Source of the DNA: an uncultured Planctomycetota bacterium
Lineage (GTDB): Bacteria; Planctomycetota; Planctomycetia; Pirellulales; PNKZ01
Direction of reading: 5' to 3'
NCBI GenBank assembly: GCA_963708675.1
Contig: CAVPTO010000003.1
Span: 3,595,477 to 3,659,476, forward strand
DNA length: 64,000 nucleotides
In this document: positions 11,587 to 39,776 of the stretch, one piece after another
Layout: each line of letters begins with the position of its first letter
Numbering within the stretch: the stretch's first letter is position 1
Translations under genes and position numbers: made by a program
Notes under the pieces: generated by a model
What the model saw: the letters and a program-made list of their open reading frames with translations, nothing else
Database searches by the model: none
What the model was told of the DNA's origin: nothing

Positions 11587-13179
11587 TCACTTCGCTTGCT
11601 CGGGATGCGTCTTCGCCCAGGCGCGATATTCGTCGAGCGTGTAGAACGTGTTATGGCGATAGAGCCGACCGCCTTCTTCGACGAGCTCGTTCGAGTTGAA
11701 CGTCCACGCGTCGCCGTTCTTGCGCATCAGTTCGGCAAGACGGCGGTCCATGTCGCTTTGAAGCACGGCATGGGCCGGATCGCCGACGAGGTTGTGCATC
11801 TGTGCCGGATCGTTCTTGTCGTCGAACAGCAGCCACGGCTCGTCCTCGAAACGCGCGTATGTGGCGTCGGCCGTGATGATGCCTCGCCACGGCTTGGCGA
11901 CCTGATCGCCAGGGTACGGCACGAAGATCTGTAGCAGCACGGCATCGGGCCCGTCGGTCGTTTCGCCTCGGGCAACGCGCGACAGATCGGCGCCTTGCAT
12001 GTTCGCTGGCACGGGTAGGCCGGCAAGCGCTAACAACGTCGGGGCCATATCGACGTGACTGAACAACGTGTCGACGACCGTGCCCTGCGGAATGCCCGCA
12101 GGCCAGCGGATGATTCCCGGCACGCGGGCTGACTCGTCGTGCGGCTTTCGCTTGCGGCGGAGGCCGTGCGAGTTGAGCATGTCGCCGTGATCGGACATGA
12201 AGAGCACGATCGTGTTTTTGTCGAACCCTTGCTCGTCGAGCGTCTTCATCAATCGGCCGACCTGATCGTCGAGGGCCGTGATGGCGGCGTAATAAGCGGC
12301 GATCTCTTCGAACGTGCCGGGTCGGATCTGTCGATTGAGCGCCGCGCGTTGCTTCGCCTTCGCGTTGGATTCGTCTCCGTCGGCCGTATCTTTCGCACGT
12401 TGCCAGTTCGCCGGCGGCGTGATGCGCTCGGGAATATACTGCCGCGTGTACTCATCCGGCGCGCCATACGGATCGTGCGGAGGCCCCATCTGCACCGTGA
12501 GAAAGAATGGCTGATCCTTCGGCTGCGATTGGAGAAACTCCACGGCGAAATCGCACGACGCTTCGGGTTCGAACTTGTGCGCCGTGATGACCTTCGGCGA
12601 GTCGCGAAAGTACGTCGGCTCGAAGTGCTTGTGATGACACTCGTAAGCGGCCCAAAACTCGAAGCCTTGTCGTCGCGGCCCCGGCGGAACGAACCCGGGA
12701 TCGCGAGGCCCGCCATCGAGGTGCCACTTGCCGACGAAGCCCGTGCGATAGCCCGCTTCGCGCAAGATTTCGGCCAGCGTGACCGTCTCCTCGCGCAGTC
12801 GCAGATCGTTGGCGATCATGCCGTTGACGTGTGGATATGTGCCCGTGAGCAGAATCGCCCGCGCGGGACAGCAGACCGGCGTGTTCGCATACGTGCGGCG
12901 AAAGCGCATCCCCTCGGCCGCGAGCCGATCAATGTTCGGTGTCTTCACGTCAACGTTGCCATCGCAGTGCATCGCGCTGCCGCGCATTTGATCGGGCAGG
13001 ATCAGCAGAATGTTCGGCCTGGCAGCGGCGGCCGCATCACTCGCAATCAGAACGAGCAAAGCGACAATCGCGAAGCCCCTGTAGGGAACGCCCTCTGTGG
13101 CGTTCCGTGAGGCGGCGTGGAACGCAATCACTGACTTCGCGGAACGCCACGGAGGGCGTTCCCTACAGGTTGAGAGCAT
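11587..13179 (-). CDS. Formylglycine-dependent (S1) sulfatase; REPIN inserted in frame in the N-terminus
   Basis: RPNILLILPDQ, catalytic CCPAR.LLTG, GKWHL and SDHG. ATG at 13179 rather than the track start at 13386. Confidence 0.92.
   Translation of the reverse strand: MLSTCRERPPWRSAKSVIAFHAASRNATEGVPYRGFAIVALLVLIASDAAAAARPNILLILPDQMRGSAMHCDGNVDVKTPNIDRLAAEGMRFRRTYANTPVCCPARAILLTGTYPHVNGMIANDLRLREETVTLAEILREAGYRTGFVGKWHLDGGPRDPGFVPPGPRRQGFEFWAAYECHHKHFEPTYFRDSPKVITAHKFEPEASCDFAVEFLQSQPKDQPFFLTVQMGPPHDPYGAPDEYTRQYIPERITPPANWQRAKDTADGDESNAKAKQRAALNRQIRPGTFEEIAAYYAAITALDDQVGRLMKTLDEQGFDKNTIVLFMSDHGDMLNSHGLRRKRKPHDESARVPGIIRWPAGIPQGTVVDTLFSHVDMAPTLLALAGLPVPANMQGADLSRVARGETTDGPDAVLLQIFVPYPGDQVAKPWRGIITADATYARFEDEPWLLFDDKNDPAQMHNLVGDPAHAVLQSDMDRRLAELMRKNGDAWTFNSNELVEEGGRLYRHNTFYTLDEYRAWAKTHPEQAK
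13079..13168. repeat. GTAG-tagged REPIN (CTGTAG-GGAACGCC-CTCYGT-GGCGTTCC inverted pair), copy 1
   Basis: Two inverted 28-nt REPs, the same as those at 31286..31374. Confidence 0.92.
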
Positions 13180-13844
13180 CGGTCGCTGGGCGGCGCGAGA
13201 ACGCCGTGAAGAATGATTTCGATCAAGGCGGTGGTCTGCTCGTCGATCGTGGTTTTGCGACCGACGAAACGGTTCGTGAACATCGTACCGTAGAGCAGGC
13301 CACTGACGGTGTCGAGCATCCCTTCGACCGGAATGTCGCTGCGGAACCGACCTTCGCCGACCATGCGCGTGTACAGCTCGCGCCACGGTGCGCGGTTGGC
13401 GTCGCGGTGCTCGAAGTAGATCGAACGCTTGCTGTCGCGGAAGATCGCACGTTCTTGAATCTGTAGCTCGACGTAGTGCGGGTTCTCGTCGAAGAACGCG
13501 AGATACGCCCGAATGCCGCGCCGCATGCGTTCGAGTGGATCGTCAGTCGCCTCGGCCGCCGCGCGAACGTGGCATTGCATCTGTGACATGCCGAGGTCGA
13601 CGCAGGCGAAGAACAGCTCCTGCTTGCCTGGGAAGTACAGGTACAGCGTCCCTTTGGCGACGCCGACCTCGGCCGCGACGCTGTCCATTTCGCAGTCGTT
13701 GTACCCCTTCTCGGCAAACAGCCGGGCCGCCGCCTCGATGATCGCCCGATGACGCACCGCTCGGCGATCTTCTTTGGGGCAGCCGTCCTTCGGGCGGTTG
13801 TCCTCAACGAGTACTTCCTTAGCAGCAGCAGTCTTCGTTTTCAT
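13128..13844 (-). CDS. TetR/AcrR family transcriptional regulator
   Basis: HTH region IIEAAARLFAEKGY...VAAEVGVAKGTLYLYFPGKQELF. Divergent from the efflux operon. The stop codon lies inside the REPIN. Confidence 0.93.
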   Translation of the reverse strand: MKTKTAAAKEVLVEDNRPKDGCPKEDRRAVRHRAIIEAAARLFAEKGYNDCEMDSVAAEVGVAKGTLYLYFPGKQELFFACVDLGMSQMQCHVRAAAEATDDPLERMRRGIRAYLAFFDENPHYVELQIQERAIFRDSKRSIYFEHRDANRAPWRELYTRMVGEGRFRSDIPVEGMLDTVSGLLYGTMFTNRFVGRKTTIDEQTTALIEIILHGVLAPPSDRCSQPVGNALRGVPRSQ

Positions 13845-13955
13845 GATTCGAGAGCCGACATGCGAACCGCCGGCGGGTGACAACTGTCTGTCTCGGCATC
13901 CCGCGGAGGGGGCATTGAAATCGTGACAATTCGCACAATAATCGAGCAATTGGCG

Positions 13956-13985: not shown

Positions 13986-14019
13986 GGTTTTGGGGCTCGC
14001 ATCAACCGCGGATTCGTGC

Positions 14020-15213
14020 ATGCACGCCAAAAGTAACTCCCGACTCCTCGCCCGGCCAATTCTCTGGTTCGGTTGCGCCAGCGTTGTGGTCCTTGCCGTC
14101 ATCGCCGGCTGCCATCGACCCGAGCCGAAGGCCGTCGTCACCAAGCCGCCCGATGTTTTGGTTTCTTATCCGACCGAAGAAACCATTACCGAGTATGAGG
14201 AGTTCACTGGTCGCACGATGGCGATCTCGACCGTCGAGATTCGCGCGCGCGTGAGTGGCTATCTCGATCGAAACTTTTTCGTCGACGGCGCCGACGTGAA
14301 GGCGGGCGAGCCGTTGTTTCAAATTGATCCGCGTCCGTTCCAGGCCGAGGTCGATCGCGCTGCGGCGGCGGTCGCGCAAGCAGAATCGCGCTTGGTGCGG
14401 CTCGAACGTCAGGAAGAACGCGCTCGTAAGTTGCGTGGCACCGGCGCCGTGACGGAAGAAGGTTACGACCTCGCTCGCTTCGATCGCGATGAGGCGCATG
14501 CCGCGCTGCTGGCGGCTCGAGCGATGGCCGAGACGGCGAACCTGAACCTGGGCTTCACGCACATCAACTCGCCGATCACCGGTCGCATCAGCCGTCGGCT
14601 TGTCGACCCCGGCAATTTGATTCAGGCCGACACGACGCCGCTGGCGAATATCGTCACGCAGGATCCGATCTACGGGTACTTCGACTTCGATGAACGCACG
14701 GCACTCCGCTTGCGCCGCATGATCATTGACGAAAAGCTGCCGGACATGAAGCACGCGCACTTGGACGTGAAGTTCTCGCTGGCCGATCAAGACAAGTTCA
14801 CGATTCCTGGCACGATCGATTTTCTCGACAACCAGGTCGACTCGGCAACCGGAACGCTGCGCGTGCGTGCCGTGATCAACAATAAGGACAACCTTCTGTC
14901 GCCGGGATTGTTCGTGCGTGTGCAAGTGCCGGTGAGCCAACCGCACGCCGCCATTCTTGTGCGTGAAGAAGCGCTGGGGACCGATCAGGGGCAACGTTAC
15001 GTGTACGTCGTCGATGATAAGGATGAAATCTCCTATCGGCGCGTGAAGGCTGGCTTTCTCAACGAGGGACGCCGGGTGATTGAGTCGGGTCTGAAGACGA
15101 CCGATCGCGTGGTGGTGCGTGGCCTGCAGCGCGTGCGTCCCGGCGTGAAGGTGGTTCCGAAGCCTGCCGACAGCAGCAGCGATTTGGCCGCAACGCCTGC
15201 GAATCGCGGGTAA
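14020..15213 (+). CDS. RND efflux periplasmic adaptor (MFP, AcrA/MdtA-like)
   Basis: VEIRARVSGYL, I.SPITGRISRRLVDPGNL, IDFLDNQVDSATGT and LLSPGLFVRV. Confidence 0.93.
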   Translation: MHAKSNSRLLARPILWFGCASVVVLAVIAGCHRPEPKAVVTKPPDVLVSYPTEETITEYEEFTGRTMAISTVEIRARVSGYLDRNFFVDGADVKAGEPLFQIDPRPFQAEVDRAAAAVAQAESRLVRLERQEERARKLRGTGAVTEEGYDLARFDRDEAHAALLAARAMAETANLNLGFTHINSPITGRISRRLVDPGNLIQADTTPLANIVTQDPIYGYFDFDERTALRLRRMIIDEKLPDMKHAHLDVKFSLADQDKFTIPGTIDFLDNQVDSATGTLRVRAVINNKDNLLSPGLFVRVQVPVSQPHAAILVREEALGTDQGQRYVYVVDDKDEISYRRVKAGFLNEGRRVIESGLKTTDRVVVRGLQRVRPGVKVVPKPADSSSDLAATPANRG

Positions 15214-15235: not shown

Positions 15236-18200
15236 ATGTTCGCGCGATTCTTCATCGATCGACCGATCTTCGCCAGCGTGCTGTCGATCTTGATCACGCT
15301 CGCTGGCGCGATCGCGGTCTTCACGCTGCCCATCGCGCAGTATCCGGCCGTCGCGCCGCCGACGGTGCAAATCGACTGCAACTACCCAGGCGCAAGCGCT
15401 CAGGTGGTCGCATCGACCGTGGCCTCGCCGATCGAGCAGCAGGTGAACGGTGTCGAGCGAATGCTCTACATGTCGAGCCAAAGCACCAGCGACGGCTCGT
15501 ACACGCTGACCGTGACGTTCGAGCCGGGCGTCGATTTGGACGTCGCGCAGGTGCTGGTGCAAAACCGCGTCAGCCTGGCGATGCCGCTGCTGCCCGACGT
15601 CGTGCGTGCGACCGGCATCACGATGCGCAAACGCTCGCCCGATATTTTGATGACGGTCAGCCTGAGCTCGCCCGACGACCGCTACGACCAGTTGTATCTC
15701 AGCAACTACGCGGTGCTCCATTGCAAAGACGAGTTGGCTCGCCTCAAGGGCATCAGCGAAGTGCTCGTCTTTGGCCAGCGCGACTACAGCATGCGCGTGT
15801 GGCTCGACCCCGATAAGCTCGCCATGCGCAACTTGTCGGTCGCCGACGTCATCAACGCTATTCGCGAGCAAAACCTGCAAGTCGCTGCGGGCCAAATCGG
15901 TCAGCCGCCCGGCGAGGCTGGCCAAGTGCTGCAAGTGCCGATGACCACGCTCGGCCGCCTGACGGATGTCGATCAGTTCGAAAACATTATCGTCCACGCG
16001 ACACACGCCGGTCAGGTGATTCGCATCAAGGACGTCGGCCGTGTCAATCTCGGCGCGCGCAGCGAAGACGTCAGCAACCGGTTCGACGGCAAGCCGACCG
16101 TCGGTCTCGCGGTGTTCATCTTGTCGGATGCCAACTCGCTCGACACCGCCGACGCAGTGAAGTCGATGATGAAGGAGCTGTCGAAAGATTTTCCCGAGGG
16201 GATGATTTATCAGACCGGCTACGACACGACGCCGTTCATTCGCGAAAGCGTGAACGAGGTGTTCAAGGCCCTCGGCGACGCGATTTTGCTGGTGTCGCTG
16301 GTGGTGTTGGTCTTCTTGCAAGGTTGGCGCGCGGCGATCATTCCGCTCATCGCGGTGCCGGTGGCGATCATTGGCACGTTCGCCGCGATGGCGGTCGTCG
16401 GTTTCAGCATCAACAACCTGACGTTGTTCGGCCTCGTGCTCGCCATCGGCATCGTCGTCGACGACGCGATCGTGGTGGTCGAAGCGGTCGAGCATCACAT
16501 CGAAAACGGCCTCAAGCCGCGTGAGGCCGCGATCGCGGCGATGCAGCAAGTCGCGGGCCCCGTGATCGCCGTCGGCTTGGTGCTCAGCGCGGTGTTCATC
16601 CCATGCGCGTTCATCACTGGCGTCGTCGGCGAGTTCTTCCGGCAGTTCGCCCTCACGATTGCCGTGTCGACGATTTTGTCGATGTTCAACTCGCTCACGC
16701 TCAGCCCGGCGCTTGCGGCGTTGTTGCTCAAGCCTCGCGATCAGAAGCCCGACCTGCTCACACGGGTCATTGATTTCACGCTCGGTTGGTTCTTCCGGCT
16801 GTTCAATTACACCTTCAAGCGATCGACCGACTTCTATGTCGGCATGGTGTCGCGGATGTTGCGAATGTCGGCCGGCGTGCTCGTTGTCTATGGCGGACTG
16901 TTGGCCCTCACGTATTGGGGCTTCTTGCAGTTGCCGACAGGTTTTATTCCGTCGCAAGACAAGGGCTATTTCATCGCCAGCGTGCAGTTGCCCGACGCGA
17001 CGGCCGCCGAACGCACGAGCGAAATCATGGCGCGCATCGAACGCATCGCTATGGAGACGCCCGGCGTCAAGAACGTGAACTCCGTGGCAGGCAACTCGTT
17101 CATGCTGTCGGCCTACGGCTCGAACTTTGGTTCGATGTTCATCATTCTCAAAGACTTCGCCGATCGAAAATCGCCCGAGATGAAGGGGGACGCCATCCTT
17201 GCCGCGATGCGAAAGCGGTACGCCAACGAAGTGCCCGAAGCGCTCGTGAACGTTTTCCCGCCGCCTGCCGTGTCGGGTCTCGGACGTTCGGGCGGTTTCA
17301 AGATCATGGTCGAAGACCGCGGCGACAACGGCCTCGACATCCTGCAAGGACAGACCGACAACCTGATCGAACAGGCGAACTTGCAGCCCGAACTGAGCGG
17401 GTTGTTCACGGTCTTCAACGCCAATTCGCCACAACTGTTCATCGATATCGACCGCACCGAGTGCATGACGCAAGGCATTAACCTCGGCGACGTGTTCAGC
17501 ACGTTGCAGGGCTACCTGGGTTCGCGGTATGTGAACGACTTCAATCGCTTTGGCCGCACGTGGCAGGTGGTGGTGCAGGCCGACTCGCAGTTTCGCGACC
17601 AGATCGAAGACGTTCGCAAGCTGCGCGTCCACAACTCGCGCGGGGGCATGGTGCCGCTCGGCTCGTTGGCGACGGTGCGGCAAGTCAGTGGGCCGCTCGT
17701 ACTCACGCGCTACAACATGTATCCCGCGGCCTCCATTCAAGGCAATGTCGCCAACGGCATCAGCACGGGGCAGGGCATCGCGGTGATGGAAAAGCTCGCG
17801 AAGCTGGAACTCCCTTCGTCGATGGCGGCCGAGTGGACCGAGATCACGTTCATCGAGCAGATGTCGCAAAACACCGGCATGATGGTGTTCGGCCTGTCGG
17901 TGGTGTTCGTGTTTCTTGTGCTCGCGGCGCTCTACGAAAGTTGGTCGCTGCCGCTGGCGGTGATTCTCGTCGTGCCGATGTGCGTGCTCAGCTCAATCGC
18001 CGGCGTGGCGTATGCCGACATGGACATCAACGTCTTCACGCAGATCGGGTTCATTGTGCTCATCGGCCTGGCGAGCAAAAACGCGATCCTCATCGTCGAG
18101 TTCGCCAAGATGAAGCACGACGCCGGCGCCAGCCGCCGCGAGGCGACGCTCGAAGCGTGTACGTTGCGATTGCGGCCGATCATGATGACGTCGTTCGCGT

Positions 18201-18637
18201 TTATTCTTGGCGTCGTGCCGCTGCTGTTTGCCGAAGGTGCAGGCGCTGAAATGCGTCGCACGCTGGGGACCGCGGTGTTTAGCGGAATGTTGGGTGTGAC
18301 GCTGTTCGGCATCTTCCTGACACCCGTGTTCTTCTTCGTCATTGAGTCGGTGGCTGAAGCTCGCGCTCACTCGAAGAGTTTCGCCACGCGCGCCTCGTCG
18401 GTCGTTCTCGACGTGATCAGCCTCGGCTTCGCGCGACGTGGCGTGATGCGCGGCTTGGCGAGCATGGCGTATGCGATGCGTCGGCCGTTCCGTTCGCGCA
18501 AACCTCCCATCGTTCATTCTCCCGCCGCTCGCGACGAGCGTTTGAACCCGCTGCCGCGCATGAGCGACAGCGGCCATCATCTCGACCTTTCCACGCGCGG
18601 CGGCCCCGGCCCTTCGCACTCGAAACGCCACGGCTAA
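15236..18637 (+). CDS. HAE1 RND efflux permease, subunit 1 (long C-terminal tail)
   Basis: FFIDRPIFASVLS, GIVVDDAIVVVE, ASKNAILIVEF and LRLRPIMMTS. Confidence 0.95.
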   Translation: MFARFFIDRPIFASVLSILITLAGAIAVFTLPIAQYPAVAPPTVQIDCNYPGASAQVVASTVASPIEQQVNGVERMLYMSSQSTSDGSYTLTVTFEPGVDLDVAQVLVQNRVSLAMPLLPDVVRATGITMRKRSPDILMTVSLSSPDDRYDQLYLSNYAVLHCKDELARLKGISEVLVFGQRDYSMRVWLDPDKLAMRNLSVADVINAIREQNLQVAAGQIGQPPGEAGQVLQVPMTTLGRLTDVDQFENIIVHATHAGQVIRIKDVGRVNLGARSEDVSNRFDGKPTVGLAVFILSDANSLDTADAVKSMMKELSKDFPEGMIYQTGYDTTPFIRESVNEVFKALGDAILLVSLVVLVFLQGWRAAIIPLIAVPVAIIGTFAAMAVVGFSINNLTLFGLVLAIGIVVDDAIVVVEAVEHHIENGLKPREAAIAAMQQVAGPVIAVGLVLSAVFIPCAFITGVVGEFFRQFALTIAVSTILSMFNSLTLSPALAALLLKPRDQKPDLLTRVIDFTLGWFFRLFNYTFKRSTDFYVGMVSRMLRMSAGVLVVYGGLLALTYWGFLQLPTGFIPSQDKGYFIASVQLPDATAAERTSEIMARIERIAMETPGVKNVNSVAGNSFMLSAYGSNFGSMFIILKDFADRKSPEMKGDAILAAMRKRYANEVPEALVNVFPPPAVSGLGRSGGFKIMVEDRGDNGLDILQGQTDNLIEQANLQPELSGLFTVFNANSPQLFIDIDRTECMTQGINLGDVFSTLQGYLGSRYVNDFNRFGRTWQVVVQADSQFRDQIEDVRKLRVHNSRGGMVPLGSLATVRQVSGPLVLTRYNMYPAASIQGNVANGISTGQGIAVMEKLAKLELPSSMAAEWTEITFIEQMSQNTGMMVFGLSVVFVFLVLAALYESWSLPLAVILVVPMCVLSSIAGVAYADMDINVFTQIGFIVLIGLASKNAILIVEFAKMKHDAGASRREATLEACTLRLRPIMMTSFAFILGVVPLLFAEGAGAEMRRTLGTAVFSGMLGVTLFGIFLTPVFFFVIESVAEARAHSKSFATRASSVVLDVISLGFARRGVMRGLASMAYAMRRPFRSRKPPIVHSPAARDERLNPLPRMSDSGHHLDLSTRGGPGPSHSKRHG

Positions 18638-18698
18638 TCACCACATTCATGAATACCACGTTGTTGATCGGACGCATTCGTTTAGCCGGCATCGCTCA

Positions 18699-18750
18699 CT
18701 TAGCCGCCGCGTCCACGCGGCGGATCCGGGTTGTGGACAACCCGGCTAAG
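18699..18750. repeat. CTTAG-tagged REP doublet (minimal non-autonomous element) between the two RND genes
   Basis: CTTAG-CCGCCGCG-TCCA-CGCGGCGG-AT-CCGGGTTG-TGGA-CAACCCGG-CTAAG, the same architecture as the RAYT-flanking REPs. Confidence 0.85.
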
Positions 18751-18810
18751 CGGTTTTGAAACACACTCGAAACGTTCGATCGGCAATCTGAAATCCACTA
18801 GCAACCCACC

Positions 18811-21800
18811 ATGTTCTCCCGATTCTTCATCGACCGACCGATCTTCGCCAGCGTGTTGTCGATCGTCATCACGCTCGCAGGCGGCATCGCGCTCTTCACG
18901 CTGCCGGTGACGCAGTATCCCGAGATCGCGCCGCCGACGGTCGAAGTGTCGGCCGTCTATCCAGGCGCCAACGCACAGGTCGTCGGCGACACGGTGGCTT
19001 CCCCGATCGAGCAGCAGGTCAACGGCGTCGAAGACATGATGTACATGTCTTCGCAATCGACGAACGACGGCAACTACGTGCTGACCGTCACGTTCCGGCC
19101 CGGCACCGACTTGGATCTCGCGCAAATTCTCGTGCAGAACCGCGTGTCGCTCGCGCAGCCGATTCTGCCGGCGATCGTCATGCGGCGTGGCGTGACGGTG
19201 AAGAAGAAATCGCCGAGCCAGTTGATGATCATCAACCTGTACTCGCCCGATAAGTCGCGAGACAATTTGTATCTGAGCAATTACGCGACGATCCAGCTGC
19301 GTGACGAGTTGTCGCGCTTGCGCGGCGTGGGCGACATCTCGTTCCTCGGCCAGCGCGATTACAGCATGCGCGTGTGGCTCGATCCGAATCAGATGTCCGC
19401 GCGTGGCCTCAGCGCCACCGACGTCGTGCACGCCATCGAGCAGCAGAACGCGCAAGTCGCCGCCGGGCAGATCGGGCAACCACCCGCGCCGACGGGTCAG
19501 GTGTTTCAGTACACGATGTCGACGCTCGGCCGGCTCACCGACCCCGAGCAGTTTGCCGACATGATCATCCGCTCCGACGCGCAAGGACGCATCATTCGCC
19601 TCAGCGATGTTGCGGATACCGAACTCGGCGCGCTGGCGTACAACCAGGAGTGCACGCTCGACGGGCAACCTTCGGTCGCGCTGTCGGTGTATCAGTTGCC
19701 GGGCTCGAACGCGCTCGACACCGCCAAGGCGGTCCGCGACAAGATGCACGAGCTGTCGAGCCGTTTTCCGGCAGGCGTCGATTACGCGATCGTCTACGAC
19801 ACGACGCCGTTCATTCAGGAATCGGTCAACGAAGTGTTCGTCGCGCTCCGCGATGCGGTCGCGCTCGTGGCGCTTGTGGTGCTCGTCTTCTTGCAAGGCT
19901 GGCGAGCGGCGATCATCCCGCTCGTCGCGGTGCCGGTGGCGATCGTCGGCACGTTCGCGGCGATGGCGGCCGCGGGCTTCAGCCTCAACACGCTCACGTT
20001 GTTCGGGCTGGTGCTGGCCATTGGCATCGTCGTCGACGACGCCATCGTGGTCGTTGAGGCGATCGAACGCCATATCGAAGACGGAATGTCGCCGCGCGAT
20101 GCGGCTTTTCAAGCGATGGAAGAAGTCGCGGGGCCCGTGGTCGCGGTCGGCCTGGTGCTTACCGCTGTGTTCGTGCCATGCACGTTCATCTCGGGCATCA
20201 TCGGTCAGTTCTTCAGGCAGTTCGCGATGACGATCGCCATCTCGACCGTCATCTCGGCGCTCAACTCGCTCACGCTTAGCCCGGCGCTGGCCGTGCTGCT
20301 GCTCAAGCCTCGCGGCGAAGGTTACACGCAACACGAAGTGCTGCCGCGATGGGGCGTCGCACTCGTCGGCGGATGGTTGGGCTACACGTTCCTGTCGCCG
20401 TATCTCGCGCCATACCTCGGCAACGTGCCGTTCGAGCGCGTGCATCTGACTCACGAGATCGGCGTTCATGTAATTGGCGGCGTGGTTGGATTCTCCGTGG
20501 CGTTGCTGATCGCGCCGATTTTGAACTACGTGCTCGGCATTGGCTTTCGCGCGTTTAATACCGTGTTCAACTGGCTCACGTCCGGGTATGTGGGCATCGT
20601 GTCGGTGTCGCTTCGCGGAAGCTTGCTCGTGCTGGCCTTGTATGGCGGGCTGCTGTATCTGACGGTCGATCTGTTCAACAAAACGCCGACCGGGTTCATC
20701 CCGGCCCAGGACAAGGGCTATCTGTTGGTGAACTTGCGGCTGCCCGACTCCGCGTCGCTCGAACGAACGGGCGAAGTCGTGCGTCATCTCGAAGCGACCG
20801 CCCGCAAGGTGCCAGGCGTCGCGCACACGGTGGCCATCGCGGGGCAGTCGATCCTGATGGGCGCCAACGCGCCGAACTTCGGCACCATGTACGTCATGCT
20901 CGACGAGTTCCATCATCGCGCACACGACGGCAACACCGGCGACTTCATCGCCAGCGAACTACAGTCGAAGTTTCAGGACGAAGTCATGGACGGCGTGGTG
21001 AACGTGTTCGGCGCGCCGCCGGTCGAAGGCTTGGGCACGGCGGGCGGCTTCAAGATCATCATCGAAGACCGCGGCGACAACGGGCTGGCCGCGCTGCAAG
21101 ACGTCAGCCAGAAGATCGTGGCCGACGGCGACAAGACGCCGGGGCTCGAAGGGTTGTTCACCAGCTTCCGCGCGAACACCACATGGCTGTACCTCGACAT
21201 CGACCGCCGGGCCGCCAAGACAATGGGCGTGCAGATCGACGAAGTTTTTAGCGTGTTGCAGGTGTACTTCGGCTCGATGTACATCAACGATTTCAACCGC
21301 TTCGGCCGAACGTGGCAGGTCAACGTGCAGGCTGACGCACAGTTCCGCAACAGGATTGACGATCTGAAGGCGCTCAAGGTGCGCAACGATCGCGGCGGCA
21401 TGGTGCCGCTGGCGTCGATCCTCAACGTGCGCGAAGTGAGCGGACCCGTGATGGTCAGCCGTTACAACCTGTATTCAGCGGCGGGCATCAACGCCAACGC
21501 CGCTCCCGGCACCAGTTCGGGCCAGGCGATCGAACGGCTACACGAAGTCGCCGACAAGAATTTGCTGCAATCGATGCGTGCCGAGTGGACCGAGTTGGCG
21601 CTGTTGCAGTTGCAGGCTGGCAGCACGGCGATGTTCGCCTTCGCGCTGGCGGTGTTGTTGGTGTTCCTCGTGCTTGCGGCGCAGTACGAAAGCTGGTCGC
21701 TGCCGTTGGCGGTGATTCTCGTCGTGCCGATGTGCTTGTTGTGTTCGATCGTCGGCGTGCGGATGGCGGGCATGGACATCAACATCTTCACGCAGATCGG

Positions 21801-22128
21801 GTTCGTCGTGCTCGTCGGCCTGGCGTGCAAGAACGCGATTCTGATCGTCGAGTTCGCACGAGCCCGGCACGAAGCAGGCGAATCGCGATGGCAAGCCACG
21901 CTCGAAGCGTGTCGTCTGCGCTTGCGGCCGATCATCATGACGTCGCTGGCGTTCATCTTGGGCGTCGTGCCTTTGATGATCGGCGTCGGCGCGGGTTCCG
22001 AGATGCGTCACGCGCTGGGGACCGCGGTGTTCGCCGGCATGTTGGGCGTGACGCTATTCGGCATCTTCCTGACGCCGGTGTTCTTCTTCGTTATTCAGTA
22101 CGTGACGGACTGGCGCGGGAAGAATTGA
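18811..22128 (+). CDS. HAE1 RND efflux permease, subunit 2 (extra hydrophobic insertion)
   Basis: Paralogous to the upstream RND, with GIVVDDAIVVVE, ACKNAIL and LRLRPIIMTS. Confidence 0.95.
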   Translation: MFSRFFIDRPIFASVLSIVITLAGGIALFTLPVTQYPEIAPPTVEVSAVYPGANAQVVGDTVASPIEQQVNGVEDMMYMSSQSTNDGNYVLTVTFRPGTDLDLAQILVQNRVSLAQPILPAIVMRRGVTVKKKSPSQLMIINLYSPDKSRDNLYLSNYATIQLRDELSRLRGVGDISFLGQRDYSMRVWLDPNQMSARGLSATDVVHAIEQQNAQVAAGQIGQPPAPTGQVFQYTMSTLGRLTDPEQFADMIIRSDAQGRIIRLSDVADTELGALAYNQECTLDGQPSVALSVYQLPGSNALDTAKAVRDKMHELSSRFPAGVDYAIVYDTTPFIQESVNEVFVALRDAVALVALVVLVFLQGWRAAIIPLVAVPVAIVGTFAAMAAAGFSLNTLTLFGLVLAIGIVVDDAIVVVEAIERHIEDGMSPRDAAFQAMEEVAGPVVAVGLVLTAVFVPCTFISGIIGQFFRQFAMTIAISTVISALNSLTLSPALAVLLLKPRGEGYTQHEVLPRWGVALVGGWLGYTFLSPYLAPYLGNVPFERVHLTHEIGVHVIGGVVGFSVALLIAPILNYVLGIGFRAFNTVFNWLTSGYVGIVSVSLRGSLLVLALYGGLLYLTVDLFNKTPTGFIPAQDKGYLLVNLRLPDSASLERTGEVVRHLEATARKVPGVAHTVAIAGQSILMGANAPNFGTMYVMLDEFHHRAHDGNTGDFIASELQSKFQDEVMDGVVNVFGAPPVEGLGTAGGFKIIIEDRGDNGLAALQDVSQKIVADGDKTPGLEGLFTSFRANTTWLYLDIDRRAAKTMGVQIDEVFSVLQVYFGSMYINDFNRFGRTWQVNVQADAQFRNRIDDLKALKVRNDRGGMVPLASILNVREVSGPVMVSRYNLYSAAGINANAAPGTSSGQAIERLHEVADKNLLQSMRAEWTELALLQLQAGSTAMFAFALAVLLVFLVLAAQYESWSLPLAVILVVPMCLLCSIVGVRMAGMDINIFTQIGFVVLVGLACKNAILIVEFARARHEAGESRWQATLEACRLRLRPIIMTSLAFILGVVPLMIGVGAGSEMRHALGTAVFAGMLGVTLFGIFLTPVFFFVIQYVTDWRGKN

Positions 22129-22139
22129 CGTTGAAATAA

Positions 22140-22272
22140 CCCCTCTCCCTTTGGGAGAGGGTGGTCCGCCGCAGGCGGGCCGGGTGAGGGCGGGTTGCAG
22201 TAGAAGGCGGTTGCCAATTCAACCCGCCCTCATCCGCCGCTTCGCGGCACCTTCTCCCAGAGGGAGAAGGGT
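22140..22272. repeat. CCCTCTCCC family REPIN (copy 2), between convergent genes
   Basis: Same arms and near-identical 22-nt spacer as copy 1. Confidence 0.9.
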
Positions 22273-39020: not shown

Positions 39021-39045
39021 CTTAGCCGGGCCGTCCACGGCCCGG
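39021..39045 (+). repeat. Left CTTAG REP flanking the RAYT
   Basis: CTTAG-CCGGGCCG-TCCA-CGGCCCGG. Confidence 0.88.
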
Positions 39046-39676
39046 TGTGGGAGGGTCACCCGTGCGATCCCATCATCGCTTATCACGTCGTCTGGGGTGC
39101 CTACGGATTTTGGCTGCCCAACGACCCGCGGGGTTCGTGGTCGAAAGACGTTTGGTCGCCGCGTCTGATGCGCTTCGGACCGCCGCGACGTGTTAATACT
39201 CGCAGCTCGCGCGCGGCCGTTTCGCATGACCTCGCGCTGCGACGAGCCGCCAAGCGCGAACTGATGCGTGAGCCGATTCGTTTCACTGGCGTCCAAGCGC
39301 GTGCCATTGGCCACGGCATTGCCGACGTCACGAGTCGCTATGCGCTTCCGGTCTATGTCGCCGCGGTCATGCCCGATCATGTGCACTTGGTGTTCGCGCG
39401 CAAGGCGGTTCATGCGGAGACGTGGGTCGGCTATTTCAAACGGGCTGCGACGAAAGCAATGGTTGCTGAAAAGTTGCACCCGTTTGCCGGTGATCGAAGA
39501 CCTGATGGCAGCCTGCCGACCGTTTGGCGCAGGGAGGTTGGAAGGTGTTTTTACATAGTGATGCCGAGATCAGCCGGGAGATTGAATACGTCGAGAAGAA
39601 TCCGAGACGCGCGGGTTTGAGGGCGCCGCACTGGTCGTTTGTTAGCCCGTATCCGCCCTGTGGACAGGGCGGCTAA
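39045..39676 (+). mobile_element. REP-associated HUH (Y1) tyrosine transposase, RAYT/IS200-like; one-base frameshift at ~39526
   Basis: IIAYHVVWGAYGFWLPNDPRGSW and MPDHVHLV (HUH). After a -1 shift it reads WAQGGWKVFL...IEYVEKNP..AGL...W.FV, with the stop inside the right REP. Confidence 0.85.
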
Positions 39677-39677
39677 G
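39653..39677 (-). repeat. Right CTTAG REP flanking the RAYT (inverted)
   Basis: Minus strand reads CTTAG-CCGCCCTG-TCCA-CAGGGCGG. Confidence 0.88.
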
Positions 39678-39776
39678 CGTTGTGTTTGGGATGGTTGTTG
39701 CGTGACAGCGCGTCACGCTTCGATTACGCTCGGCGGGACGTATTTGCTCGCCACGCCCACCTCGCGGAATCTCGCC

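Follow-up and report, generated by a model that had tools for sequence, protein, structure and literature searches.

Among the described systems, the closest to the one presented here is that of Escherichia coli, in which REPs of two types (Y and Z) are paired in inverted orientation through a short linker into extragenic, multi-copy BIMEs, and in which the same REPs, carrying a conserved tag at the hairpin foot, bracket a single HUH/Y1 gene in the unit called the REPtron (PMC3333891, Ton-Hoang et al. 2012; PMC3479197, Messing et al. 2012). The roles of REPs were summarised in the same two papers (PMC3479197, PMC3333891). In the REPIN-RAYT systems of Pseudomonas and Enterobacteria, it is the doublet of inverted REPs that replicates, and each family has one cognate RAYT (Bertels and Rainey 2011, PMC3116915; RAREFAN, 10.1101/2022.05.22.493013). 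The REPs of Stenotrophomonas maltophilia and Marinomonas are perfect palindromes placed after a conserved tag, which was proposed to be an IS200/IS605-like guide choosing the cleavage site (Corneloup et al. 2021, PMC8266576). In the survey of Di Nocera et al., GTAG and CGTC are the sole superfamilies listed, and the string TTAG is absent from that survey.

In this work, a 64,000-nt stretch of DNA (referred to as the window; C3:3595477-3659476) of a Pirellulales genome (6.7 Mb, 60.6% GC, five contigs) was analyzed, in which a 52-bp doublet of hairpins separates two RND permease genes and a RAYT-like gene is bracketed by hairpins of the same kinds. In our opinion, this doublet is probably a BIME/REPIN-type non-autonomous element, composed of the two end hairpins of the RAYT cassette joined by 2-4 nt. 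As in E. coli, two kinds of REP lie inverted to each other on either side of a short linker, the units are extragenic and multi-copy, and the same REPs, with a conserved tag at the hairpin foot, flank a single HUH/Y1 gene. Unlike in E. coli, the planctomycete tag is (C)TTAG(CC) and not GTAG, the perfect 8-9-bp stems lack the bulge required by E. coli TnpA-REP, and the genome holds about 50 REPs instead of hundreds; the RAYT gene itself differs in having its stop and last 7 codons within the right REP, in scoring 46 bits against an 80-bit NCBIfam cut-off, and in its planctomycete host. In place of GTAG or CGTC, CTTAG/TTAGCC was found both here and at the RAYT ends of the relatives.

The presence of several RAYT paralogs in one genome, each tied to its own repeat family, is a feature common to this genome and the REPIN-RAYT systems. 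The classical REPIN, however, is one long hairpin with near-identical arms, whereas here the A and B arms differ and fold on themselves, with only the 5-bp tags pairing between them, and the fullest copies additionally possess an outer pair of 21-nt inverted arms. With the REPs of Stenotrophomonas and Marinomonas, the units share perfect palindromes following a conserved tag; the tag sequence and the protein subclass are different. Miniature elements derived from IS200/IS605 have, on one strand, subterminal hairpins in the same orientation, and their left and right cleavage sites differ; in the units described below, the two ends are instead inverted repeats proper, with loops of CC and GG on the same strand and with tags facing outward.

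The doublet and the RND junction

The doublet occupies positions 18699-18750 of an RND efflux locus, whose features are as follows:

13128..13949, minus strand: TetR-family regulator, divergent
13990..15213, plus strand: RND periplasmic adaptor (membrane-fusion protein)
15236..18637, plus strand: RND permease 1 (RND1; HAE1, AcrB/OqxB-like), with its stop 61 nt before the doublet
18625..18637, unstranded: candidate relic of an A-type REP tail and tag, ACGCCACGGCTAA (inverted repeat), holding the RND1 stop TAA
18679..18689, plus strand: candidate relic of a B-type REP head, cgTTTAGCCGG (inverted repeat, RNA fold, 8-mer frequency)
18692..18698, unstranded: left flank TCGCTCA, common to other copies (consensus TCGCTCG directly before the A tag)
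18699..18723, plus strand: REP of type A, tag CTTAG and hairpin CCGCCGCGT-cc-ACGCGGCGG, of the RAYT right-end type
18724..18725, unstranded: AT spacer of the window doublet
18726..18750, minus strand: REP of type B, read on the minus strand as CTTAG and CCGGGTTGT-cc-ACAACCCGG, of the RAYT left-end type
18751..18773, unstranded: remnant of the B-side outer arm, beginning with CGGTTTTGAAACAC, the terminal TTAGC being missing in the window copy
18811..22128, plus strand: RND permease 2 (RND2; HAE1), with its start 60 nt after the doublet

On the plus strand, positions 18699-18750 read CTTAG-CCGCCGCGT-CC-ACGCGGCGG-AT-CCGGGTTGT-GG-ACAACCCGG-CTAAG. The earlier note had described the element as two CTTAG/TCCA hairpins placed head-to-head between the RND genes with only AT separating them, and both the sequence and a repeat search bore this out: two perfect 9-nt inverted repeats with a 2-nt gap between their arms were found (18704-18712/18715-18723 and 18726-18734/18737-18745), and the 52-bp doublet as a whole is a 71% palindrome. 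In each arm, effectively 8 bp are paired and the loop is TCCA or TGGA; for either of the 25-nt arms the number of occurrences expected in shuffles of the window was 0. A REP unit has 25 nt, in which the tag, (G)CTTAG(CC), is followed by a GC-rich, perfectly paired stem of 8-9 bp; within the tag, T3, G5, C6, and C7 are invariant, and T2, A4, and G8 are conserved in at least 90%.

The RND1-RND2 spacer of the window has 173 nt. In a metagenomic ortholog (L037), in which RND2 is 86% identical over 500 aa and the core of RND1 aligns, the stop and start codons overlap (TGATG); in a congener (G001) the junction is a 24-nt spacer without the doublet, and the spacers of other members of the RND family have roughly 9-95 nt. 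When the orthologous RND1-RND2 spacers were compared across relatives, the doublet was absent at every orthologous junction examined. Another relative (G002) was not used as a junction ortholog, its best RND2 match having no RND gene in front of it. Since the relatives with tandem RND genes have a compact, doublet-less junction, the 173-nt spacer is the derived state.

Two further segments of this spacer resemble parts of REPs. The candidate A-type relic matches a REP half at 12 of 15 positions (p ~0.01-0.03 in controls), while the candidate B-type relic, with its core TTTAGCCGG at 18681-18689, can pair with CCGGCTAAGCG at 18742-18752, as indicated by the inverted repeat and the RNA fold. The presence of these putative relics suggests repeated REP activity at the RND junction.

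An exact 11-nt direct repeat, CACTCGAAACG, is present at 18617-18627 and 18764-18774 (147 nt start to start), and this pair encloses the doublet together with the putative REP relics and the end of RND1 with its stop codon. Its interpretation as a target duplication was not adopted, as RND1 would have no stop codon close by once the interval is removed.

Other repeats were noticed in the same locus. The TetR regulator gene has a different, GTAG-tagged REPIN (CCTGTAGGGAACGCCCTCTGTGGCGTTCC ... GGAACGCCACGGAGGGCGTTCCCTACAGG) at its 3' end (13079-13179), and the stretch just past RND2 (22141-22161, 22185-22235, and 22250-22270) carries hairpins belonging to a third repeat family, with the sequences CCCTCTCCC-nnn-GGGAGAGGG and GGTGAGGGCGGG...CCCGCCCTCATCC, found also near C3:2590837, 4444906, and 5826212. 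Together with the doublet, they make the efflux operon one punctuated by three different repeat families. The minimum of the cumulative GC skew falls at C3 ~3.54 Mb, ~50 kb upstream of the window; therefore, the replication origin is probably located near the window.

The RAYT cassette

When the tag was searched for in combination with the loop, a RAYT-like cassette was located at 39021-39677:

39021..39045, plus strand: RAYT left REP, B-like, CTTAG-CCGGGCCGT-cc-ACGGCCCGG
39045..39673, plus strand: RAYT-like HUH/Y1 gene with motifs DHVH and YVEKNP and a 1-nt frameshift near 39525-39530
39653..39677, minus strand: RAYT right REP, A-like, read on the minus strand as CTTAG-CCGCCCTGT-cc-ACAGGGCGG

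The open reading frame starts with GTG at 39045, and the DHVH (HUH) and YVEKNP (catalytic Tyr) motifs are located in two different frames, shifted by one base. As the shift lies within a short G run, it could be an assembly or sequencing error; a programmed frameshift is unlikely, the slippery site not having been seen at this position. The stop codon TAA (39671-39673) sits within the right-hand CTAAG tag, and together with the last 7 codons it overlaps the right REP. The joined protein (~210 aa) matched the NCBIfam REP_Tyr_transpos family NF047646 with an E-value of 4e-12 and 46.2 bits, the cut-off being 80 bits; the match with Pfam Y1_Tnp was weak (17.9-23.2 against a cut-off of 23), and the PDB matches were marginal and limited to the ISDra2 transposase. 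By its HUH motif DHVH and its Y-x-x-x-NP motif (YVEKNP), the protein resembles TnpA-Y1 class 2, i.e., the RAYT type (Quentin et al. 2018, PMC6006769). Its length is near that of subclass 2.7, though none of the listed subclasses agrees exactly with its W motif, GW-K (PMC6006769). Class 3, which is rich in planctomycete proteins, differs from it in having a Y-x-x-x-x-Q motif and a CnGA foot (PMC6006769).

In the same genome, three RAYT paralogs with 32-36% identity were found (C3:1463526-1464080, C3:4600368-4600913, and C3:5620906-5621457), each flanked by its own distinct type of repeat; two of these types have (C/T)TTAGC-like or TAAGCG feet.

The ends of the cassette correspond to the arms of the doublet. 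Each RAYT end hairpin is one compensated base pair away from a variant of the doublet, and the right end differs from the A arm of the window copy by two compensated base pairs. On the plus strand, the right end (39651-39679) reads AT-CCGCCCTGT-GG-ACAGGGCGG-CTAAG-CG, and the context AT-hairpin-CTAAG-CG, to which the earlier note had drawn attention, is literally common to it and to the right arm of the doublet. By stem type, though, the resemblance is swapped: it is the left arm (CCGCC..., type A) that corresponds to the RAYT right end, and the right arm (CCGGG..., type B) that corresponds to the RAYT left end, so that, judged from the stems, the window doublet is inverted relative to the cassette. 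The shared context holds in the inverted orientation because AT is its own reverse complement. As the layout of the cassette (B on the left, A on the right) matches that of the doublet, the latter can be described as the two ends of the cassette without the gene.

RAYT homologs and REPs in relatives

Among 40 relatives, the REP pattern was patchy, with 4 matches in each of G001 and G002, 17 in G007, 7 in G010, and 11 in G029. Homologs of the RAYT were found in 11 other genomes, and each of them has, at both ends, its own hairpins with a TTAGCC foot and with differing stems. The nearest named relative of the RAYT comes from a Pirellulales MAG. The homolog of G010 is intact, consists of one open frame, and aligns to residues 8-210 of the joined RAYT protein. 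Another intact homolog (58% identity) is carried by the Pirellulales MAG JBGSSS010000025.1 (locus L027); at its 3' end (L027:2076-2106) it has CCGCCGCGTGGACGCGGCGG-CTAAG, a hairpin and tag in complete identity with the A arm of the window doublet, which is thereby closer to this end than to the right end of the RAYT in the window. Both of these intact genes end within the right-hand hairpin and tag, which is the same layout as in the window cassette.

In G001, G002, and G007, a cognate RAYT was not detected, though a few REPs or doublets of the family are present. For two congeners, both flanks of a doublet could be placed on one contig at 4 loci (6 comparisons with a concatenated-flank search), and the doublet was absent in 6 of 6; the few doublets of the congeners occupy other places. 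Exact empty sites were not recovered, the genes of the congeners being ~80% identical and their intergenic DNA too diverged, and what these comparisons demonstrate is absence.

Genome census of the doublets

Copies in the genome were counted with a mismatch-tolerant scan for CTTAGCCGSSNNGTCCACNNSSCGG, allowing up to 3 mismatches, which superseded a fuzzy regex census that had missed mismatched copies. The ~58 matches resolved into 23 doublets, a few singlets, and the two RAYT ends, i.e., ~50 REPs in total for the doublets and singlets. All 23 doublets are composed of one A (CCGCC...) and one B (CCGGG...) hairpin with tags pointing outward and a linker of 2-4 nt. A linker of 3 nt (AAT, ATT, etc.) is the rule, being present in 20 of the 23 copies; of the other three, two have 2 nt and one has 4 nt. 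The cores have 52-54 bp, usually 53 bp, and are 85-98% identical to the window copy, which, with its 52 bp, has a spacer 1 nt below the usual one. Its closest relative, at C3:5771021, is identical at 52 of 53 positions.

The distribution of the copies is clearly extragenic: in a genome that is ~87% coding, 23/23 cores are intergenic (20 wholly outside ORFs and 3 touched by ORF ends alone), and most doublets lie within 30 nt of a gene 3' end. Their contexts are varied and include convergent and divergent gene pairs. No orientation bias with respect to the replication direction was seen (8+/4- vs 5+/6- by replichore), although such a bias might be predicted if single-stranded DNA of the lagging strand were targeted; the power of this comparison is low with n=23.

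The census also bears on another explanation, in which the doublet has no relation to the RAYT and is either a GC-rich palindrome that arose by chance or a common intrinsic terminator. In a genome of 60.6% GC, short GC hairpins are common, and a TTTT run is found 8 nt past the second hairpin. An independent whole-genome pattern search, however, gave 43 REP matches against 0 for the reversed-pattern control. The 23 near-identical copies refute this explanation, which is also at odds with the match between the doublet ends and the RAYT cassette; the T run belongs to a conserved outer arm (see below) and is not a terminator tail, and a scan of the site did not call a terminator. We regard its probability as negligible. 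The doublet is thus neither unique in the genome nor at chance level against the reversed-pattern control; the earlier note would have abandoned its reading had the doublet been unique and its resemblance no better than chance.

The doublet as part of a larger unit

The homology of the window copy to other copies, as determined by BLAST, extends over 18692-18773, i.e., beyond the core. In the alignment of copies, many have outer inverted arms, CTAAGAAGgtGTTTCAGAACC ... GGTTCTGAAACacCTTCTTAG, forming a 21-nt inverted pair; in the fullest copies, a nested palindrome of ~120 bp results, in which another pair of tags lies outside the first. The family consensus of the B-side outer arm is C(A/G)GTT(C/T)TGAAAC..CTTCTTAGC. 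The outer arms were found nowhere but next to a doublet or to a solitary B-type REP, with 0 matches for the reversed control, which indicates that the ~120-bp composite is one unit; the same occurrence ruled out the outer arms as an independent repeat family. The window copy has kept 7 nt of the left flank, has lost the left outer arm, and has the right outer arm shortened at its end.

The doublet had been called the minimal non-autonomous partner of the RAYT. That it is a transposase-less derivative with the end hairpins of the RAYT is sustained by the uniform A+B composition of the copies, by the TTAGCC hairpins that the RAYTs of relatives have at their own ends, by the identity of the L027 hairpin, and by the absence of the doublets at the congener sites; the word "minimal" is overstated, considering that the fullest copies reach ~120 bp.

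Selection on the hairpins and the state of the family

Among 37 distinct REP variants of this genome and the relatives, 92.9% of the stem cells pair. Double-sided changes occur in 4 of 8 stem positions and account for 48 cells, whereas shuffles gave 18.6 +/- 3.0 and none of the 500 shuffles reached the observed value; when the partner column was slid, pairing fell to 38-54%. Such covariation indicates that the REP hairpin is under selection.

It is possible, though in our judgement somewhat doubtful, that the whole family is a fossil, i.e., that the RAYT spread the doublets once and is now dead, and that the window copy is immobile and neutral, with no role in the operon. This would agree with the 1-nt frameshift of the RAYT, for which the genome has no second cognate copy, with the internal TGA stop of the second paralog (C3:4600368-4600913), and with the truncation of the window copy on both sides. 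Several copies are moreover degraded, having mismatched stems or lost tags; at C3:2590837-2590875 an internal deletion has fused the A stem to the B hairpin (CTTAGCCGCCCCGTCCGGGTCGTGGACGACCCGG), and the B-side tag is lost. On the other hand, the 94-98% identity among subfamily copies points to a recent spread, most stems are still perfectly paired, and the frameshift, lying in a G run, may be a sequencing error.

Returning to the reading of the doublet as a non-autonomous REPIN-type element, we infer, by analogy with the known systems, that it was mobilised in trans by the RAYT; given that the gene is frameshifted in the assembly, such mobilisation may be impossible at present. By analogy with E. 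coli TnpA-REP and the IS200/IS605 enzymes, each hairpin, folded on single-stranded DNA, would be bound by the RAYT, which would pick a nearby cleavage site with the help of the tag and would then cut and rejoin the strand. Units of A+B would thereby be excised or copied and re-inserted into intergenic DNA.

Possible effects on the efflux operon

In the window, the element, accompanied by what appears to be older REP debris, occupies a junction which in the closest relatives is overlapping or has 9-24 nt. In the transcript of the operon, the core is predicted to fold into a stable Y-shaped structure, in which two separate hairpins are closed by the 5-bp tag stem (-31.8 kcal/mol); the z-score of the predicted fold of the whole spacer was -4.85, and the two arms of the doublet are 71% complementary to one another. 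The promoter and terminator scan called no promoter-like or terminator-like site at the doublet, and an Rfam search of the spacer gave no match. Judged by its sequence, i.e., a GC hairpin without an immediate U tract, the doublet is not a canonical intrinsic terminator.

Intercistronic REPs and BIMEs of E. coli, e.g., in the mal and his transport operons, stabilise the upstream mRNA and attenuate transcription. By analogy with REP precedents, the window copy would most plausibly uncouple the translation of RND2 from that of RND1 and hinder 3'-exonucleases, favouring the upstream mRNA of the membrane-fusion protein and RND1. The window copy may equally be neutral.

A stronger version of this idea is that the doublet is an RNA element selected by the host, whose hairpins set the RND1/RND2 ratio through mRNA stabilisation, partial attenuation, or uncoupling of translation. 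The doublet lies on the sense strand of the operon with co-oriented genes 61 and 60 nt away, its predicted fold is very stable, RND1 and RND2 overlap or are closely spaced in relatives, which means that the insertion must have changed the coupling, and the E. coli intercistronic REPs and BIMEs provide a precedent. We nevertheless find host selection unlikely: the absence of the doublet at the orthologous junctions means that it is not a conserved regulatory feature, a U-tract terminator was not called, and the same doublet occurs in all sorts of intergenic contexts.

Stop codons within the tags

A separate observation concerns the positions of stop codons. In six host genes, the stop codon lies precisely within the terminal T(A/T)AG tag of an outer arm; in a seventh gene, it lies within an inner tag (examples are C3:655936-655956, 2292953-2292973, 3197530-3197550, 3561254-3561274, 4112468-4112488, and 1375526-1375560). 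The RAYT and its homologs in G010 and L027 stop inside the right-hand CTAAG, and RND1 ends in a REP-like relic. These coincidences might mean that the presence of TAG or TAA in the tags is not incidental, and that the element may insert at or beside stop codons, or supply them; this is a conjecture to which we assign a rather small chance. If it were true, a tag-guided transposase acting on single-stranded DNA, with a stop codon contained in its target, would home to gene ends, which would account for the location of REPs directly behind genes, and the element could rewrite C-terminal tails and break translational coupling in operons such as RND1-RND2.

Significance of the planctomycete system

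The system is of a known type, and nothing in it overturns the current understanding. REPs, BIMEs, and RAYTs are well studied in Proteobacteria and hardly in Planctomycetota, for which this locus provides a clean, small example. As the gene-less unit consists of the two ends of the gene-bearing one, it speaks for an origin of such repeats from a domesticated Y1 transposase, on which they would also depend. The insertion of such a unit between two efflux permease genes that are otherwise tightly coupled makes the locus a convenient natural test of whether hairpins of this kind change gene expression in an operon.
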